A stretch of DNA of 57,244 nt, taken from Clostridia bacterium (GTDB lineage: Bacteria > Bacillota > Clostridia > RUG12999). Below the pieces are notes generated by a model, which had not been told where the DNA came from, ran no database searches, and was given only the letters and a program-made list of their open reading frames with translations. Shown here one piece after another: positions 8,986-16,702 of the stretch (within the stretch, counting starts at the first letter, position 1; each line of letters starts with the position of its first letter). The translations under genes and the position numbers were made by a program. The stretch lies in NCBI GenBank assembly GCA_045580815.1, contig JAZNOL010000014.1:1-57244 (forward strand), given 5' to 3'.

Positions 8986-10101
8986 TTAAAACCCACTTCC
9001 TGCTTCCTGCGATGGCTCAAAGATGGATTTTGCCTGGCTGTCTGTAAGTTCTATACCAAAAACTTCTTTATAATATTTTTTTGTTTCTGCTGTGATGTCG
9101 ATATCTTCAAACAACTGCGGATATGTGTTTTTTGCAAGCCACATTAAAGTTATGGGAGTATCTGCACCGGGCGTATAGCTTCTGTATATACCAAGCGGCA
9201 TTTTAAACACATTTTTGTTCTGCACAGCCTTTATACCGCTCCAGTCATATGCACCGACAGTATTTTCGTATAAATCTTTCGGAAAAGCCTCTGTAAAATT
9301 GCTTATAAATATTGTATCGGGATTCCAGACGTAAACCTGCTCAATATTAACGTGCTGTTCATTGTCTCCCGAAAGCTCTTTTGCAACATTTTTTGCACCG
9401 ATTGCATCAGCCCACCAATCACCGAAAAAGTTGTCTCCGGCGGTGACAATCGCGCTGTCGTTATATTTGAACAAGAAAAATACTTCTGCTTTTTCTTCGT
9501 CAGAAAGATTTTTAACACGTTCTTGTATCATATTGTACACATTGTTGCTATACTCTGCAACAGTATCTGCTTTGCTGTTTTCGGGAAACATCTGATTAAG
9601 AAGTGAAATCCAGTTATTTAAGGTTTCTATACAATTATACTCCCATTTGTTAACCGATACGGCAACAGCATTAAATCCGGCGTTCTTAAGCTGTTCTCCC
9701 TGTTTGGGCTTTGATGCACTGTAAATAACCACATCGGGATTTAATTTCATAAGCTCTTCGGTGTTAAGCTCTCCGCCGGCAAGAAAACCGGTGGAAGCAT
9801 TTAAAATTTCGGGATACAGTTTTGAAAGCAGGCTGTTTTTTGCAGCATTCATACTTCCGGGAGCCATTGCAACAATTTTTTCTCCACTATCAAAAAAGGT
9901 TGCTATAACCGATGGAAGCGGCAATATGTCGCAAACAGCAATACGCTCGATTTTTGCCGGAAGTACAACTTCGTTGTCAAGATGGTCAATAACAGTAATT
10001 GTATCGCCTAAAACCTGTTTTTCTGCCGGTGAACACGCAGAAAGTGTCAATATTAATACCACAGCTAAAATAAGTGATAATTTTCTAAAAATTTTTTTCA
10101 T
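8986..10101 (-). CDS. ABC transporter substrate-binding lipoprotein, helical-backbone (BtuF/FhuD/FepB-like) class
   Basis: Signal peptide with lipobox LSAC; ITVIDHLDNEV.LP..IERI, NTEELMKLNPDVVI, VNIEQV..WNPD.IFI, W..IKAVQN..V; AGGAGG RBS; last gene of the operon. Confidence 0.88.
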   Translation of the reverse strand: MKKIFRKLSLILAVVLILTLSACSPAEKQVLGDTITVIDHLDNEVVLPAKIERIAVCDILPLPSVIATFFDSGEKIVAMAPGSMNAAKNSLLSKLYPEILNASTGFLAGGELNTEELMKLNPDVVIYSASKPKQGEQLKNAGFNAVAVSVNKWEYNCIETLNNWISLLNQMFPENSKADTVAEYSNNVYNMIQERVKNLSDEEKAEVFFLFKYNDSAIVTAGDNFFGDWWADAIGAKNVAKELSGDNEQHVNIEQVYVWNPDTIFISNFTEAFPKDLYENTVGAYDWSGIKAVQNKNVFKMPLGIYRSYTPGADTPITLMWLAKNTYPQLFEDIDITAETKKYYKEVFGIELTDSQAKSIFEPSQEAGSGF

Positions 10102-10112
10102 TCTTATCCTCC

Positions 10113-11240
10113 TTAAATTTCCGTTTCAAGCAGATTAGAAATATTTTCCCGATACATTCTTCCGGAAAATGCTTCGTGGGGAAAATCATAAAATTTTGCA
10201 GATGGGGGGCATATTTTTTCAAAAAGCGGGTCTGCCGCAACAATCGATGCATTTTTTAAAATATTTTTGATATGCTCCTCGTCTTTCATGATTATGCACC
10301 CAAAATTTTTAAAATCCGCATCTGTATCGGGCGGGCATACAACAGTAGGTGTTACGCCGTATTTCTCTTTTATTGCTTTTGCAAGTGATAAGCCTGTAAC
10401 AGCCTCGGAAACAATAAAAATACCGCTGTCGGTGTTGGTATTTCTAATGCATTTGTTCTCCCCTGTTTCTCCGCATTGTTTTATAATATTTATAAACTTT
10501 TCTTCAAAGAATTTTTTTACAGGCAATGCAACAACATACGGTGTGCCATATATCCTGTTTAAATATTTTGCCGCTGCATATCCGCAGGATGAAACAACAA
10601 GATTAACATGTGCCGATGATGCATTTTGAATTTCGTCAAGATTTCCGCCTATACCGAAACGTGATACAACCTCGATGTCATATTTATAAAGCAAATCTTC
10701 TAACCCATTACAATATCCGGTTAACGAAAAATCAAGAGGTGTTGTTCCTATAATATTAACCGACAAATTTTTAGTTTTTTCTTTTTTCTCCGTAACAAAC
10801 CGTTTTGCAATTGCTTCAAACGCCATTGACGCACCGCTTATATAACTGTGCATTCCATTTGTAGAAAAACCAAAACACGGTATATCCGTCATATTTTCAA
10901 TGATTTTAGCAACCGCTTTAAGGTCTGTTCCTGTAATCATAGGAAGCGGTGTTCCGGCAATAGCTATAAATTTGGGACTCAGGCTTTGAGCTGTGCTTAC
11001 AATATCATTAATAAGTTTTTCGTCATCGCCCATAATCATATCCATTTCGGATATTGCTGATATAAAAACAAGACTGTCAAAATCATACCAGCGCGGTTCG
11101 TCGTGGGTATTATAAGTGGAATTGCACCCGGAAGCATCATCAATAACCGTCATTCCGCCCATTTCAAAAAGAGCTGAGGCAACACCTGAAACATCGGCTG
11201 TATATGTTGAAATAAAAGATGAAGCCTGATTTACAGACAT
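10113..11240 (-). CDS. Nitrogenase component-1-like oxidoreductase subunit (NifK/BchB/CfbD superfamily), divergent
   Basis: DASGC, SAISEMDMIMGDDEKL, SPKFIAIAGTP...GTDL and FSTNG match the oxidored_nitro fold layout; 375 aa; start overlaps the upstream gene. Confidence 0.8.
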   Translation of the reverse strand: MSVNQASSFISTYTADVSGVASALFEMGGMTVIDDASGCNSTYNTHDEPRWYDFDSLVFISAISEMDMIMGDDEKLINDIVSTAQSLSPKFIAIAGTPLPMITGTDLKAVAKIIENMTDIPCFGFSTNGMHSYISGASMAFEAIAKRFVTEKKEKTKNLSVNIIGTTPLDFSLTGYCNGLEDLLYKYDIEVVSRFGIGGNLDEIQNASSAHVNLVVSSCGYAAAKYLNRIYGTPYVVALPVKKFFEEKFINIIKQCGETGENKCIRNTNTDSGIFIVSEAVTGLSLAKAIKEKYGVTPTVVCPPDTDADFKNFGCIIMKDEEHIKNILKNASIVAADPLFEKICPPSAKFYDFPHEAFSGRMYRENISNLLETEI

Positions 11241-12571
11241 GACTCACACCCCAATCCTTTTACCTGAATAAGTTTTTGCGTTTCCTTTTCTGTCAAAAAT
11301 GCGTCTTCAATCTCACTGCAAAGACGGACTATACCGTCAAAGCCCCAATGACCGCCGCCTTCAACGATATTTACAAAATTGCGACTTCCCGTAAAATACG
11401 CCGCTTTTTGACCTATACATACAATTTTGTCGTTAAATTTTCTTGGCAGAACACGCATTGTAGGATGAACTGTCGGATACACTTCCAAATCAGGTTTAAT
11501 CAGTTTTAATTTTTCAAACGCCGGTTTATCTTCGGCTGTAACGCTGTCTGCATACACACGCACAACGTTAACTGCATTTTCCGAAAACAGAAGAGCCAGC
11601 TCGAAAGGGCGTGAAACTGCTGTATAATCAATTGCAACAGGAACATTACCTATTACAGCTTTCATTTTTTCGATGGCATTTTGTGCGTTTTTTTGCAAAT
11701 CTTCAATATCAAGCACTTCCGCTGTTCCAAGAGTTTCAACAAGCATTTTTATATGATTTTTTATTGTTTCAAAGTTGAAACTGCACGGAATATACAAATG
11801 CTTTTGCCCAAATTTTTCAGCAAGCTCGTCTCCGGCACATTTTGCCGCCGGATAATAGGTTATATTTAAAGCAGACGAAGCCATTGACTGATATTCATTG
11901 TATGTTTTACAGTTTGTAATTTCTTTAACATTAAAACCGCTTGATTTGAGAATTTCAATAAGCTCACTTGATTCATCGGTGGAAAAATCGTTACCTATAA
12001 TATTAACTGATTTAAAATCTGTCTGCGTGGGTTTTAACAGCGAATAAAGCTGTTTTCTCATTATCTGGTCAGGAGTAAGTCCGCTTTTTCGCATAATGGG
12101 ATTCATGTAGCAATCAGTAAAATCTATATCAGGAAAATTGGTTTTCAATGTTTTAAAAACATAATCCATATCACAACCCATAAAGTGGTGAATACAGCTT
12201 GTATACAGCAAAATCGCAGCTGGTTTATACGGCAATTCGGATAAAATTTTTGAAACTCCGTCAATAATAAGAGTTTCCATACTTCCGTCAAGAACATTGT
12301 GCTCTTTGATTTCTATTGTAGAAAACCGCCCTGATGCACCCATTTCTGCCGCTGTCAGCACAACGCCACGCAAACAGCCTGCTGCACATACAAAAATCTG
12401 ATGCGCCCCCGGAATAAGCATTCCGGTGTGAACAATGTTCCACGTTCCCCTTGCCGGAGCACCGTATTCAAGAGTGCTTTCAAAAAGTTTTGATGAATCG
12501 GCATCTTTGATTTTTTTACATATTTCCGGCATGATTTCGGTTTTATTGTCAGGTCTGATTTGTTTAAGCAT
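11231..12571 (-). CDS. Nitrogenase component-1-like oxidoreductase subunit (NifD/NifE/BchN superfamily), divergent
   Basis: VCAAGC (C62/C66), LYTSCI (C126), VNIIG and LNITYYP..KCAG..L..KFG..H; adjacent to the NifH-like gene. Confidence 0.82.
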   Translation of the reverse strand: MLKQIRPDNKTEIMPEICKKIKDADSSKLFESTLEYGAPARGTWNIVHTGMLIPGAHQIFVCAAGCLRGVVLTAAEMGASGRFSTIEIKEHNVLDGSMETLIIDGVSKILSELPYKPAAILLYTSCIHHFMGCDMDYVFKTLKTNFPDIDFTDCYMNPIMRKSGLTPDQIMRKQLYSLLKPTQTDFKSVNIIGNDFSTDESSELIEILKSSGFNVKEITNCKTYNEYQSMASSALNITYYPAAKCAGDELAEKFGQKHLYIPCSFNFETIKNHIKMLVETLGTAEVLDIEDLQKNAQNAIEKMKAVIGNVPVAIDYTAVSRPFELALLFSENAVNVVRVYADSVTAEDKPAFEKLKLIKPDLEVYPTVHPTMRVLPRKFNDKIVCIGQKAAYFTGSRNFVNIVEGGGHWGFDGIVRLCSEIEDAFLTEKETQKLIQVKGLGCESCL

Positions 12572-13331
12572 CTGATACCTCCTTAAACTGAGCCATCATA
12601 GCATCAGCAAGTTTTTCGTATTCTTTTGCCATTTCACTTTCAGGAAACGCTTCAATTACAGTTTTACCAAGCTCTTCTGCATCAAGAACGATTTCGCTTC
12701 TATTTAAACTGCCAACTATTTTGGTTTCAAGGTCATCGGCAAGCTCGGCAACCTTTTCTTCTTCATTTTTTACGTTACGTCTGTTTAAAATTATACCGCC
12801 AAGACGGGCATATCCCCTGCCTTTAAAATTCTGCGTTGCCATACCGATATTTGCCGCCGCATGAATCGACATATTCTCTCCGCTTGTAATTACGAAAACC
12901 TTTTCGGCATATCCGGGACGCATAGGCATTGTAAATCCGCCGCACACAACATCGCCCAGCACATCATAAAATACTATATCGGGTTTGTAGACCTCAAAAG
13001 CACCTTTTTCTTCGAGCTTTTCAAGGGATGCTATTATCCCTCTGCCTGCACAGCCCATGCCTGGTGCAGGTCCTCCTGCCTCAACGCACAGCACACCCCC
13101 AAAGCCTTTTATCACCATGTCATCAAGGGTGAAATTATTTCCTTTTTCACGGATAAGGTCAAGCACAGTAGAAACTTCTTTTTTCCCGCGAAGTAAAACC
13201 GTTGAATCTGCTTTCGGGTCACAGCCTATCTGCATAACGGTAAGCCCTTTTTTTGCAAGCGATGCTGATATATTTGAAACTGTGGTAGATTTCCCTATAC
13301 CGCCTTTTCCGTAAATTGCCGCTTTTATCAT
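12564..13331 (-). CDS. NifH/BchL/CfbC-like Fe protein (nitrogenase-reductase-like ATPase)
   Basis: GKGGIGKST P-loop, QIGCDPKAD, EAGGPAPGMGCAGRG (C94) and YDVLGDVVCGGF (C130). At 255 aa it lacks the C-terminal tail of canonical NifH. Confidence 0.95.
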   Translation of the reverse strand: MIKAAIYGKGGIGKSTTVSNISASLAKKGLTVMQIGCDPKADSTVLLRGKKEVSTVLDLIREKGNNFTLDDMVIKGFGGVLCVEAGGPAPGMGCAGRGIIASLEKLEEKGAFEVYKPDIVFYDVLGDVVCGGFTMPMRPGYAEKVFVITSGENMSIHAAANIGMATQNFKGRGYARLGGIILNRRNVKNEEEKVAELADDLETKIVGSLNRSEIVLDAEELGKTVIEAFPESEMAKEYEKLADAMMAQFKEVSDA

Positions 13332-14386
13332 ATTTTTGTTTCTCCTTTATAAAAATCTCCTCTGCCTATAACGGCTTCATATCCTATTTCTTTCAATTTT
13401 TCTTCAAAATCCTTTTTATGATTAACTGTTTGACCGGTTGTTCCCACTTTGTTGTCATAAAGCATATATTTTGCTTTTACCTCCTGCGGAGATAAGTTGA
13501 GCATTATTACGTTTGCACCGGCAAGGATTCCTTTTATACGTCCGTCTTTTTCTGCTGTTCCGAGAGCTGTTGTTGACGGAAGTAAAACTGCCGGAAGCAT
13601 TATTCTTGTAAGTGCAAGTAAAAATAATGTCAATGTTACATCTCCGGCAGATTCTTTTGCAAATGGTGTATCTTTGTGAGGAATAAACGGACCTATCCCC
13701 ACCATGTGTGGCTTAAAATCACCCAGAAACATCATATCTTCAGCCAGATTTTCAACTGTCTGATAAGGCGAGCCTACCATAAACCCTGCACCAACCTGAA
13801 AGCCTATATTTTTCAGATTAAAGAGACACTCTTTTCGTGTAGCAGGAGACATCTTTTCGGGATGCAGTTTTGCATAATGGTCACCGTTTGCCGTTTCATG
13901 GCGAAGCAGGTATCTGTCTGCACCGGCATCGAAATATTTTTTATATGTTTCTTTTGTTTTTTCGCCTAAAGACAACGTAACCGCACAATCGGGATATTTC
14001 TTTTTTAGTGTTTTAATAATATCACACATGATTTCGTCGGTATAATGCAAATCTTCGCCGCCTTGCAGCACAAAAGTGCGAAACCCAAGCACATACCCTT
14101 CATCAGCGCACATTAAAATATCTTCTTTTGAAAGTCGATATCTGGCGGCGTTTTTGTTGCCGCAACGTATGCCGCAATAATAACAGTCATTTTTGCAGTA
14201 ATTTGATATTTCTATAAGACCGCGCATAAAAATTTTGCTGCCGTATATTTTCTTTACAATTTCGGTTGCAAGAGATATTGCATAATTGCAATCGTCTTCT
14301 GTATAACTGCCTATAAGTGTTATCCATTCCTGCTTTGAAAGTGTTTTTTCTTTATTCAGTTTATCAATTAAAAATTTATTGTTCAC
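13328..14386 (-). CDS. hydE: HydE-like radical SAM protein (BioB/HydE/PylB superfamily)
   Basis: CKNDCYYC (C64/68/71), RYLLRHETAN, GIGPFIPH.DTP, LPSTTAL, GANVIM and Y.LYDNK are HydE-family signatures; GTG start. Confidence 0.88.
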   Translation of the reverse strand: MNNKFLIDKLNKEKTLSKQEWITLIGSYTEDDCNYAISLATEIVKKIYGSKIFMRGLIEISNYCKNDCYYCGIRCGNKNAARYRLSKEDILMCADEGYVLGFRTFVLQGGEDLHYTDEIMCDIIKTLKKKYPDCAVTLSLGEKTKETYKKYFDAGADRYLLRHETANGDHYAKLHPEKMSPATRKECLFNLKNIGFQVGAGFMVGSPYQTVENLAEDMMFLGDFKPHMVGIGPFIPHKDTPFAKESAGDVTLTLFLLALTRIMLPAVLLPSTTALGTAEKDGRIKGILAGANVIMLNLSPQEVKAKYMLYDNKVGTTGQTVNHKKDFEEKLKEIGYEAVIGRGDFYKGETKI

Positions 14387-14401: not shown

Positions 14402-15466
14402 TTACTGTTCGTCCTCATAAATAGTTTTTACGTTAATGCCTTTCATTGACGAGAGCTTCAGCTCCATGCCCTTTAACTTTGACTGCGGGCCGTCAAGTGT
14501 AAGGTTTATTACTCTGATGTCATATTTTTTGTACGGCATACCCATTCTGCCGACAATATATTTTCCGTATTCATGAATACATTTGTTTACTTCATCAACC
14601 GATGCATCATTTTTAACGGTTACCGACATAACCGCCAACTTATTTCCGAACTCAGAAATTTTCAGCTTCGCTGTATTTTCGGAAGATATTTCAACGGGCA
14701 CAATATCATGTAAAGCATTTTTTTCTGTTTCAACCGTGCCGATGACGGTTTTTACCCCAAACGCCGCTTCAATATTCTTTTCTGTAACAACCTCGGCAGT
14801 ATTTCCAAACAATACTCCCCCATGTTTGCTTATAAGCAACGATTTGTTTGCTCTTCGCAGTGCATGAGCCGGATAATGTGTATTAAAAATACAGCAAACG
14901 CCTGATTGTGCCAACTGAGATATTGTATCAAGCACAATTATCTGATTTTTAAAATCAAGGTTTGATTCAGGCTCGTCCAGAATAAGAATCTGCGGATTTG
15001 AAACAAGTGCTCGTGCAATCAGCACCATCTGTAACTGTCCGCCGCTTATTTCGTTACACTGTTTTTCGGCAATGCTTTCTATATTAAGTCTTTTCATAAC
15101 CTCAAACGCATCAGCAACATCTTTTGATGACGGTGTTTCAAAAAAATTCAAGCTTCCGCTTTTTCCAAGAAGTATCATTTCCCGAACGGTCAGCGATGAT
15201 GTGCTCTGTTTTGCCTGTGGAACGTAAGAAACAATGTTCCACAGCTGTTTCGGGGAAAGATTTTTTATGTTTTTTCCGCCGATTATGCTTTCTCCGCTAC
15301 GCCATTTCAAAAATCCCATTATGCATTTAAGAAGTGTTGTTTTTCCTACACCGTTTGGCCCGAGAATAGCAATAACATCCCCTTTTTGTGCATCAAAATT
15401 TATATTTTCCAATATGTTATTCTGTTTCGCATATCCGAAACAACCATTTTTAACCGACAATATCAC
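14402..15466 (-). CDS. FepC/BtuD-type ABC ATPase fused to a C-terminal TM1266-like (iron-only hydrogenase system regulator, ACT-like) domain
   Basis: GPNGVGKTT, ISGGQ, LILDEP and NTH; C-terminal EVNKCIHEYGKYIVGRMGMPY...LTLDGP...GINVKT resembles TM1266. The real start is GTG 15466 in a GTGA overlap with the permease stop; the ORF-track extension to 15739 is spurious. Confidence 0.85.
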   Translation of the reverse strand: MILSVKNGCFGYAKQNNILENINFDAQKGDVIAILGPNGVGKTTLLKCIMGFLKWRSGESIIGGKNIKNLSPKQLWNIVSYVPQAKQSTSSLTVREMILLGKSGSLNFFETPSSKDVADAFEVMKRLNIESIAEKQCNEISGGQLQMVLIARALVSNPQILILDEPESNLDFKNQIIVLDTISQLAQSGVCCIFNTHYPAHALRRANKSLLISKHGGVLFGNTAEVVTEKNIEAAFGVKTVIGTVETEKNALHDIVPVEISSENTAKLKISEFGNKLAVMSVTVKNDASVDEVNKCIHEYGKYIVGRMGMPYKKYDIRVINLTLDGPQSKLKGMELKLSSMKGINVKTIYEDEQ

Positions 15467-16500
15467 AGCTGCCACCCCTTTCCTCTGCGAAGAAGGAATA
15501 TGAAAAACGGTGCGCCTATTATGGCTGTCAGCACAGAAATTGGAATTTCTGATACAGAAGCCGACCTTGCAACCGTGTCTGTAAGCATCATAAATGCCGC
15601 ACCGAGACTTATTGATGCCGGCACAATAGAAAGATGGTTTGCACCAAATTTCATGCGGCATATATGAGGAATTATAAGCCCTACCCATCCAACCTGACCG
15701 CACATTGCAATGCTTGCGGCGGTAACAGCAGTTGAACAAATAACGGTTACTATCCGTGTGAGTTTTAAATTGACACCTGTTGACTGAGCCTCTTCATCTG
15801 AAAGCACAAGAATATTAAGTCGCCACCTGATTATATATAATACTAAAACACCAATGGCAATTACGGTTATTCCGGGTATGATGGAAGAAAATCCGGCACC
15901 GTTTAAACTTCCCATAAGAAAATATGTTATTGCCGGAAGCTGCGTTTCGGAATCGGCAAGAAATTTTACCAACGAAACAAGAGCTGAAAACAGGGAGCTT
16001 ATCATTATACCGGACAAAACCACGCTACTCATTCCCCTACCAAGTTTTGAACCTGAAAACCAGGTGAGAGCAACAGCACCAAGTCCAAAAGCAAAGGCAC
16101 AGATATGGATTCCAAGTGTGTTAAATCCAAGAAGAATTCCAAGTGCCGCACCAAAGCTTGCTCCACCCGCCGCACCGAGGGTATCGGGCGTTGCAAGAGG
16201 ATTGGCAAAAAGGCTCTGATATGCACAACCGCTGACAGAAAGACCCGCCCCTACAAATGCCGCAAGAAGAATGCGCGGAAGACGTATTGTGTTTATTATT
16301 GTTGTGATTTGTGCAGGAAGCCCGGAATTTGCGTTAAAAAGCTCCGCAAGTGCCTTAAAAGTGTCAGGCAGGGAAATTATCATTCTTCCGCTGCAAAGAG
16401 CAATAATCGCTGCAAAAACCGGAATAATCAGTAATAATATTTTTGCTTTAACGGATAATCCGCCGGGTGCTGTTTTCTTTAAAGATTTACTTCTGTTCAT
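15463..16500 (-). CDS. FecCD/BtuC-family ABC permease
   Basis: IRLPRILLA..VGAGLSVSG..YQ.LF.NPLA.PD.LG...GA, EEAQSTGVN, GQVGWVGLIIPHI.R, EIPISVLTAIIGAPFF. Confidence 0.95.
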   Translation of the reverse strand: MNRSKSLKKTAPGGLSVKAKILLLIIPVFAAIIALCSGRMIISLPDTFKALAELFNANSGLPAQITTIINTIRLPRILLAAFVGAGLSVSGCAYQSLFANPLATPDTLGAAGGASFGAALGILLGFNTLGIHICAFAFGLGAVALTWFSGSKLGRGMSSVVLSGIMISSLFSALVSLVKFLADSETQLPAITYFLMGSLNGAGFSSIIPGITVIAIGVLVLYIIRWRLNILVLSDEEAQSTGVNLKLTRIVTVICSTAVTAASIAMCGQVGWVGLIIPHICRMKFGANHLSIVPASISLGAAFMMLTDTVARSASVSEIPISVLTAIIGAPFFIFLLRRGKGWQL

Positions 16501-16514
16501 TTTAGTTTCCTTTC

Positions 16515-16550
16515 AAAAACAAAAAGCTGTGCTTCTTTCGAAAGCACAGC
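16515..16550 (-). terminator. Intrinsic terminator (attenuator) in the 5' leader of the nitrogenase-like operon
   Basis: GCUGUGCUU-loop-AAGCACAGC followed by UUUUUGUUUUU, just before the AAAGGA RBS of the first gene and downstream of the promoter. Confidence 0.8.
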
Positions 16551-16673
16551 CTGCATATGCATAACAAACAGATTTAACCTAAAAAGGCTAAATCAACTGT
16601 AAACAAAGGTCATCGGCTTTCATCTCAAAACGTATTTTTGATGTCAGGGTCATAACATTTAGTTTGTATTTAT

Positions 16674-16702
16674 ATTATATATTAAATTCAAAGGTTTGTC
16701 AA
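16674..16702 (-). promoter_or_regulatory. Consensus sigmaA promoter of the nitrogenase-like operon
   Basis: Exact TTGACA-17 nt-TATAAT, giving a leader of about 165 nt. Confidence 0.88.

Follow-up and report, generated by a model that had tools for sequence, protein, structure and literature searches.

What kind of cluster is held, and what reaction carried out, by a pair of nitrogenase-like subunits that do not have the ligands of nitrogenase? The question is raised by two genes in a window of 57,244 nt (the whole stretch of DNA analysed, contig JAZNOL010000014.1 of a Clostridia bacterium; all operon coordinates given below are positions in this window, on the minus strand), which encode proteins related to NifD and NifK that are called here the D-like and K-like subunits. 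They belong to an operon of seven genes whose reading frames overlap or almost abut, in the order permease, ATPase–TM1266 fusion, HydE, NifH-like, D-like, K-like and binding lipoprotein (Table 1). Operons of this type are widespread in gut and rumen and their function has never been characterised. From the residues described below, the pair most likely binds one [4Fe-4S] cluster at each D/K interface, at the position of the P-cluster, through three cysteines and one aspartate, and we consider it an evenly balanced question whether, with such a cluster, D/K forms the catalytic part of a divergent, ATP-driven nitrogenase-like reductase that acts in [FeFe]-hydrogenase maturation where HydG is lacking. 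The invariant aspartate, the evidence from paralogues and the quantitative link to loss of HydG are new here; an outline of the ligand pattern had appeared earlier (Dos Santos et al., 2012). The residues and their conservation, the fold, the synteny and the negative association with HydG are shown directly; the type of cluster, ligation by aspartate, the substrate and the replacement of HydG are inferred from them.

Residues at the three P-cluster positions

Both subunits match the nitrogenase component-1 family PF00148 (80.2 bits for the D-like and 108.6 bits for the K-like protein, with a cut-off of 28.6), and Foldseek relates them to NifD, NifK, NifE, NifN, MarD and BchB with a probability of 1.0. 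The K-like model is nearest to BchB/ChlB (template modelling (TM) score 0.69–0.71), and the D-like model is about equally near to VnfD, NifE/NifN and MarD (TM score about 0.6). A single-sequence phmmer search of the PDB with the D-like protein gave a leucine-rich-repeat protein (3goz) as a spurious top match, with VnfD and NifE appearing weakly, and profile searches and AlphaFold/Foldseek were used instead. The equivalences given here come from profile alignment together with predicted secondary structure, the AlphaFold2 models being of monomers only.

A first-pass annotation of the sequence had pointed out two NifD/K-like reading frames with an unusual set of cysteines, and at the level of codons both frames and every residue that it named are present as it described them. 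In the D-like subunit the region A38-P-A-R41-G-T-W44 has no cysteine at the first P-cluster position, and C62, C66, C126, C133 and C154 are all present (codons 12386–12388 for C62, 12374–12376 for C66 and 12194–12196 for C126). In HMMER and hhalign alignments, C66 is equivalent to NifD C88, which is position 2 of BchN, and C126 to NifD C154; the pattern over the three P-cluster positions is none, Cys, Cys. Position 1 corresponds to a disordered segment (residues 32–46) and helix 46–52, and the cysteine found at residue 38 in 11/81 D orthologues may, judging from the alignment, lie at this position. At the FeMoco (iron–molybdenum cofactor) positions the alignment places a tyrosine at C275 and no conserved histidine at H442, in agreement with the first-pass annotation, which had found no evident Cys/His motif of this kind. 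When a single NifD sequence was used in hhalign, D-Cys62 was placed on NifD Cys62 with the position-2 unit deleted, but the probability of this alignment was 0.2% and it was rejected because the BchN alignment (probability 69%) and the succession of strand 56–63 and helix 64–76 put Cys66 at position 2. C133 and C154, which the first-pass annotation had listed with the other cysteines, are unlikely ligands: the NifD equivalent of C154 is C183, which is not a ligand, and the wider clade has Cys, Ser, Thr or Ala at this position, and C133 is conserved in 89% of D orthologues, is specific to the D family and is missing from the paralogue D2 (see below).

In the K-like subunit the three P-cluster positions are filled by Asp16 (in TADVSG, codon 11193–11195), Cys39 (SGC, 11124–11126) and Pro98 (GTP, 10947–10949), again with codons checked, giving the pattern Asp, Cys, Pro. 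Cys39 is equivalent to NifK C95 and to BchB D36, and Pro98 to NifK C153 (HMMER and hhalign); Asp16 falls within one residue of NifK C70, whichever flanking glycine is taken to anchor the alignment.

The predicted monomers (predicted local distance difference test (pLDDT) 83.5 and predicted TM score (pTM) 0.85 for the D-like protein; 83.8 and 0.86 for the K-like protein) place D-Cys66 at the opening of helix 64–76, after a strand (56–63) that ends near Cys62, and Cys126 after strand 119–124. In the K-like model Asp16 is the first residue, or N-cap, of helix 16–24, Cys39 follows strand 30–34 and Pro98 opens helix 98–102. The strand-to-helix junctions that hold the candidate ligands are, in both subunits, those that bear the P-cluster ligands in NifDK. 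Low pLDDT values are found in D 32–46, 158–163 and 438–446 and in K 38–53, and several conserved residues specific to the D family fall in such segments, as is expected of loops that would become ordered only in the complex or with ligand.

Conservation in orthologues and paralogues

The family is large, with thousands of matches in the protein collection and at least 587 GTDB species that have the motifs ARGxWNIVH / H[QE]xx[VI]CAxxC. Carriers include Clostridium ljungdahlii, C. ragsdalei, C. luticellarii and Intestinibacter bartlettii, many Oscillospiraceae and Lachnospiraceae, and Synergistaceae and Victivallales. Conservation was counted in orthologues from 80 species at 50–63% identity (81 D and 73 K sequences). 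C62, C66, C126 and C154 of D are each present in 81/81, as against 89% for C133, and Asp16 and Cys39 of K are both present in 73/73, with Pro98 in 72/73. As proper alignment restores no 3+3 set of cysteines and the unusual residues are conserved among orthologues, the description of the set as non-canonical holds. An invariant loop, H46-D-E-P-R-W51, comes after K-Cys39. The D family has further invariant residues (H48, H57, H128, R161 and K162), while H129, C133 and the C-terminal C442-x2-C445 are conserved at about 90%; of these H128, H129, C133 and the CxxC tail are specific to the family.

Several loci carry a second pair of subunits, D2 and K2, which are only 26% identical to D and 31% identical to K. 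The D2 protein keeps Cys66 and Cys126 and has, instead of Cys62, a cysteine at 65 (a tandem CC at 65–66), and all 118 K2 proteins retain the D-E-P-R-W loop as well as Asp16, Cys39 and Pro98; the four candidate ligands are invariant also in the 7 D2 and 9 K2 paralogues, from two phyla. Among 150 D2 representatives, 22 are of 770–1000 aa, and the C-terminal half is an intact K2 in 21 of these and garbled in the other. Such fusions show that the two subunits work together, and the four candidate ligands are present in all 21 intact polypeptides, which come from diverse clusters at 50% identity. Of the 92 D-type representatives whose sequence extends over these sites, at least 90 have a cysteine at the position of D-Cys66 and at least 90 at that of D-Cys126. 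The additional cysteine behaves differently, being at 62, at 65 or missing among these representatives; many D-type relatives do without it, three D2 members among them, and of these three one is joined in a single polypeptide to a K2 half with Asp16 and Cys39 in place. The only candidate ligands that never vary across D/K, D2/K2 and the fusions are therefore D-Cys66, D-Cys126, K-Cys39 and K-Asp16.

K2 has two more nearly invariant cysteines that flank Cys39 (C-x4-C-x4-C, at the equivalents of positions 34 and 44), and these, with the CC of D2, suggest that D2/K2 may bind a larger or an additional cluster compared with D/K. A related NifH, 60% identical, is found with D/K-like genes on plasmid pSPTER of Sporomusa termitida (NZ_CP036260.1, 13879–32559), where a TonB-dependent siderophore receptor, an AraC regulator and a FecCD-type importer lie ahead and an alpha/beta hydrolase after, and HydE is missing.

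The predicted cluster and a 3+1 alternative

A single [4Fe-4S] cluster with three cysteines and one aspartate is favoured because only the four residues just named never change. The most likely set of ligands would be of the 2+2 type, with D-Cys66 and D-Cys126 at positions 2 and 3 of one subunit and K-Cys39 and K-Asp16 at positions 2 and 1 of the other; D-Cys62 is proposed to be a nearby auxiliary or alternative ligand. A serious rival, if an unlikely one, is an all-Cys [4Fe-4S] cluster bound 3+1 as in NifEN by D-Cys62, D-Cys66, D-Cys126 and K-Cys39, in which Cys62, or Cys65 in the case of D2, takes over from the cysteine lost at position 1 and Asp16 lies in the second sphere, for instance as a proton donor or helix cap. 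It draws on the position of Cys62 at the end of the strand leading to the Cys66 helix, on the tandem CC of D2, on a C-P-x-x-C motif in many distant D-type relatives and on the S. termitida relative, which has three cysteines in D and one in K and whose K has no aspartate. It has to contend with the absence of the extra cysteine from many D-type subfamilies and from the three D2 members, including the one fused to a K2 half with Asp16 and Cys39, and with the finding that Asp16 is invariant wherever the position-1 cysteine of D is absent. Three points tell against aspartate ligation: Cys62, conserved in 81/81 of the D family, could be what really completes the ligand set, in a 3+1 arrangement like that of DPOR or NifEN; Asp16 could be conserved instead as a helix N-cap or a proton relay; and the alignment at position 1 is good only to within one residue. 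To our knowledge, DPOR is the only known case of an aspartate-ligated catalytic [4Fe-4S] cluster.

Loss of HydG in genomes that carry the cluster

HydG was not found in the source genome, in which HydE, HydF (on another contig) and two HydA-type genes are present. The distribution of the three maturases was determined in 22 cluster-bearing genomes, and as a control 150 evenly sampled genomes of Clostridia, each at least 90% complete, were surveyed for HydF, HydG and the cluster. HydE and HydF are present in 22/22 of the cluster-bearing genomes and HydG, above its cut-off, in 3/22, and where the cluster includes HydE, this is the only HydE of the genome in 10/12. The sample contains 102 genomes with HydF and 96 with HydG; the seven that have HydF without HydG comprise all four cluster carriers and three others (Fisher's exact p = 8e-6). 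When the sets are pooled, HydG is found in 3/25 carriers as against 95/98 of the HydF-positive Clostridia without the cluster (p = 4e-18), and the source genome, like 22/25 carriers, does not have the full set of HydE, HydF and HydG. HydG and HydF are usually neighbours in the background Clostridia, and one genus (g59) has genomes of both kinds, G083 with the cluster beside HydF and no HydG, and G166 with HydG next to HydF and no cluster. It has been reported that C. ljungdahlii, C. ragsdalei and their relatives have HydE and HydF and no canonical HydG, and that they have HypCDEF without HypAB, both being unexplained (PMC9431212).

The operon and its variants

Synteny was examined in 80 loci, many of them truncated. 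The NifH-like gene is present in 80, K in 79, TM1266 (free or fused) in 61, the binding protein in 59, the ATPase in 58, the permease in 53 and HydE in 51, and HydF lies directly downstream on the same strand in 29. That HydE might be a chance neighbour is rejected by this synteny and by its usually being the only HydE of the genome. Two other arrangements include the second pair: in acetogenic Clostridium the order is D2-K2-HypF-HypD-HypE-NifH-D-K, and in Victivallales TM1266-HydE-H-D-K-H2-D2-K2-HypF...HypD-HypE. In the loci examined, the importer and the D2K2/Hyp module are mutually exclusive.

Table 1. Genes of the operon and their positions in the 57,244-nt window
Feature	Position	Strand	Characteristics
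FecCD/BtuC-type permease	15463–16500	−	–
Type-II ATP-binding cassette (ABC) importer ATPase with C-terminal TM1266-like domain	14402–15466	−	PF00005 and PF21699
HydE radical-SAM maturase	13328–14386	−	TIGR03956, 543 bits (cut-off 255)
NifH-like ATP-dependent reductase, 255 aa	12564–13331	−	P-loop, switch I and cluster cysteines all intact
D-like subunit, 446 aa	11231–12571	−	Nitrogenase component-1 fold, PF00148
K-like subunit, 375 aa	10113–11240	−	PF00148; fold nearest BchB; open reading frame overlaps that of the D-like subunit
Cluster-A Peripla_BP_2 substrate-binding lipoprotein	8986–10101	−	Lipobox LSAC

The NifH-like protein has its P-loop (GKGGIGKS) at residue 8, switch I (CDPKADS) at 37 and the cluster cysteines C94 (in CAGRG) and C130 (in CGGF); it scores 318 bits with TIGR01287 and 312 bits with the CfbC model, each under the cut-off. 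Its start is overlapped by the stop of HydE, the sole HydE of the source genome. The longest reading frame of the ATPase starts at a TTG at 15739 and would share 277 bases with the permease; a GTG at 15466 is the likelier start, as it gives a product of 354 aa and a 4-base overlap with the permease stop, and as homologues align from residue 1. The TM1266-like domain at the end of the ATPase is of the 'iron-only hydrogenase system regulator' type. A second, free-standing TM1266-like gene in the source genome (G000 C37:4245-4475) is 38% identical to the ATPase tail and adjoins an HtpG-like gene, with no hyd gene nearby. Among solved structures, the closest relatives of the binding lipoprotein are proteins that bind metal chelates or oxyanions. 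Upstream of the permease lies a long leader (16501–16702), which gave no Rfam match at E ≤ 1, and a riboswitch of known class is ruled out there at this threshold.

Comparison with characterised systems

Both subunits score far below the NCBIfam equivalog cut-offs for NifD, NifK, NifE, NifN, BchB and CfbD. The K-like protein reaches 51.7 bits with the nifD model (cut-off 653) and 22.9 with nifK (cut-off 427); the D-like protein matches neither of these, gives 36.5 bits with nifE (cut-off 505) and has no significant BLAST similarity to NifD. The pair does not qualify as a Mo, V or Fe nitrogenase, having neither three cysteines per subunit nor equivalents of Cys275 and His442. It resembles NifDK with NifEN in its fold, in its NifH-type partner and, in the variant with two sets, in the pairing of catalytic-like and scaffold-like paralogues, but the 3+3 Cys P-cluster and Cys275/His442 are missing here. 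The source genome has no second NifH/D/K-like set (NifB was not searched for).

Three nitrogenase-like systems were compared using a 2026 review (PMC13474568): DPOR, in which BchN provides three cysteines and BchB an aspartate; CfbD, in which positions 2 and 3 of each monomer are used; and ISR, with predicted ligands at NifD C88 and NifK C70/C95/C153. The D/K arrangement matches none of them. The NB-cluster of DPOR has the same general features as the cluster proposed here, namely one inter-subunit [4Fe-4S] cluster with three cysteines and one aspartate, no FeMoco and a NifH-like, ATP-dependent donor, but in DPOR the cysteines are at BchN positions 1, 2 and 3 and the aspartate (Asp36) is at position 2 of BchB, where the K-like subunit has Cys39, its aspartate being at position 1. 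The first-pass annotation had suggested a DPOR-like single cluster with an aspartate ligand; Asp16 is indeed one of the four invariant candidates, but the layout is not that of DPOR. The D-like subunit is without position 1, TIGR01278 (cut-off 490) gives a score of 64.9 bits, and chlorophyll genes are absent. The D-like subunit would use the two positions that are used in CfbD (the equivalents of NifD C88 and C154); CfbD, however, is homodimeric and its all-Cys cluster is symmetric, whereas the present protein is a heteromer in which K has no position 3, and with TIGR03282 (cut-off 268) the K-like protein gives 36 bits and the D-like protein no match. MAR and ISR (Groups IV-C and IV-F) are marked by a NifB-like radical-SAM partner and a setting of sulfur metabolism, and MAR by cysteines of the P-cluster type. 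Their cysteine pattern is different from that of D/K, the radical-SAM partner here is a HydE equivalog and not NifB-like, and there are no sulfur-assimilation genes adjacent to D/K.

The suggestion that the ligand arrangement might be new did not survive comparison with the literature, as a clade with two cysteines in the D/E-like and one in the K/N-like subunit had already been described (Dos Santos et al., 2012; PMC3464626), with examples in Methanocorpusculum (Mlab_1040/1039), Desulfitobacterium (Dhaf_1539/1540), Coprococcus catus and Dorea longicatena. A ligand other than Cys, on the model of DPOR, was suggested in that work, which also recorded an association with ABC transporters and hydrogenase maturation proteins. 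The D/K pair agrees with this clade in having cysteines at the equivalents of NifD C88 and C154 and NifK C95, no FeMoco ligands and the same gene links, the comparison being with the published pattern. The invariant Asp16, the variable extra cysteine, the D2/K2 comparison and the negative association with HydG are added here; in the earlier paper the suggested ligand was not identified and HydG was not brought into connection with the clade. We found no function for the clade in the literature since 2012 and no described link between a nitrogenase-like protein and HydG. The operon is like the canonical TM1266-HydE-HydG-HydF operon in bringing together a TM1266-type domain, HydE and (in 29/80 relatives) HydF; it is unlike it in that HydG is absent and the NifH/D/K-like trio with the importer, or with H2-D2-K2-HypFCDE, stands in its place.

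Proposed role and alternatives

The first-pass annotation had expected an organic substrate and not N2. As discussed above an N2-reducing nitrogenase is not what is encoded, but 'organic' is too generic, because HydE, HydF, TM1266, HypFCDE and the loss of HydG point to the pathway for the iron–carbonyl/cyanide cofactor, and we take an organometallic iron species to be the likely substrate. In the mechanism that we propose, electrons from the NifH-like dimer would reach the 3 Cys/Asp [4Fe-4S] cluster between D and K and would then be relayed to a pocket within D, which may be lined by the His, Cys, Arg and Lys residues of the D family (H48, H57, H128/H129, C133, R161, K162 and the CxxC), and the enzyme would supply or process an iron–carbonyl/cyanide building block that is normally made by HydG. 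The substrate would be a compound taken up by the chelate-type ABC importer in the source variant, or made by H2-D2-K2-HypFCDE in acetogenic Clostridium and Victivallales; as the importer and H2-D2-K2-HypFCDE are complementary, this suggests uptake and endogenous synthesis of the same intermediate. The full form of this proposal, that a nitrogenase-like reductase with a 3 Cys/1 Asp cluster replaces HydG, the importer variant scavenging a precursor or ligand source from the community and the other variant making it, is put forward tentatively, as something rather less than evenly probable.

Several observations count against such a role and should be noted. Three cluster-bearing genomes keep HydG. 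Three genomes with HydF and no HydG (G077, G094 and G148) have no D-like gene or any K/K2-type gene and remain unexplained; incomplete binning is one possible reason, and the use of some further route is another. Most of the genomes are metagenome-assembled, the source genome being 85% complete. No HypE or HypF was found in the source genome, and the importer variant is without an obvious source of cyanide. Co-occurrence and synteny are, moreover, not function.

The better of the two alternatives to this role, which we regard as improbable, is that D/K reduces an imported metal chelate or a tetrapyrrole/corrinoid, for metal release or cofactor salvage, with the hyd genes as accidental neighbours. 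The importer is of the BtuCD/FecCD type, the characterised enzymes with a single [4Fe-4S] cluster (DPOR, COR and CfbCD) reduce tetrapyrroles (PMC13474568), the Sporomusa cluster combines a TonB siderophore receptor and importer with the absence of HydE, and HydE is missing from the cluster in about one-third of loci. All of these would fit, but the loss of HydG (22/25 carriers against 3/98 non-carriers) would then be unexplained, as would the place of the genes between HydE and HydF, the TM1266–ATPase fusion and the mutually exclusive HypFCDE/D2K2 module. That D/K does not replace HydG but is instead a client of the maturases, a new metalloenzyme whose Fe-CO/CN cofactor comes from HydE/HydF/HypFCDE and for which D2/K2 serves as NifEN-like scaffold, seems more doubtful still, for although the two-set architecture does resemble NifDK with NifEN and the D family has extra conserved His and Cys residues and a CxxC tail that are missing in D2, this reading gives no account of the maturation of HydA in these genomes without HydG, and the HydE of the cluster is usually the only one that carrier genomes have.

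Implications

If the assignment of the ligands is right, D/K and D2/K2, with 26–31% identity between paralogues, would provide a second and permuted set of three cysteines and an aspartate, and carboxylate ligation would be seen to recur in the nitrogenase superfamily as a way of tuning clusters. If HydG is indeed replaced, this would be a reaction class new to the superfamily and a new biosynthetic route to Fe-CO/CN centres, with a bearing on hydrogenase engineering and on syngas-fermenting strains. The operon may answer how [FeFe]-hydrogenases are matured without a canonical HydG in acetogens such as C. ljungdahlii and C. ragsdalei and in many Clostridia of the gut, and may also explain why HypCDEF is kept without HypAB (PMC9431212).

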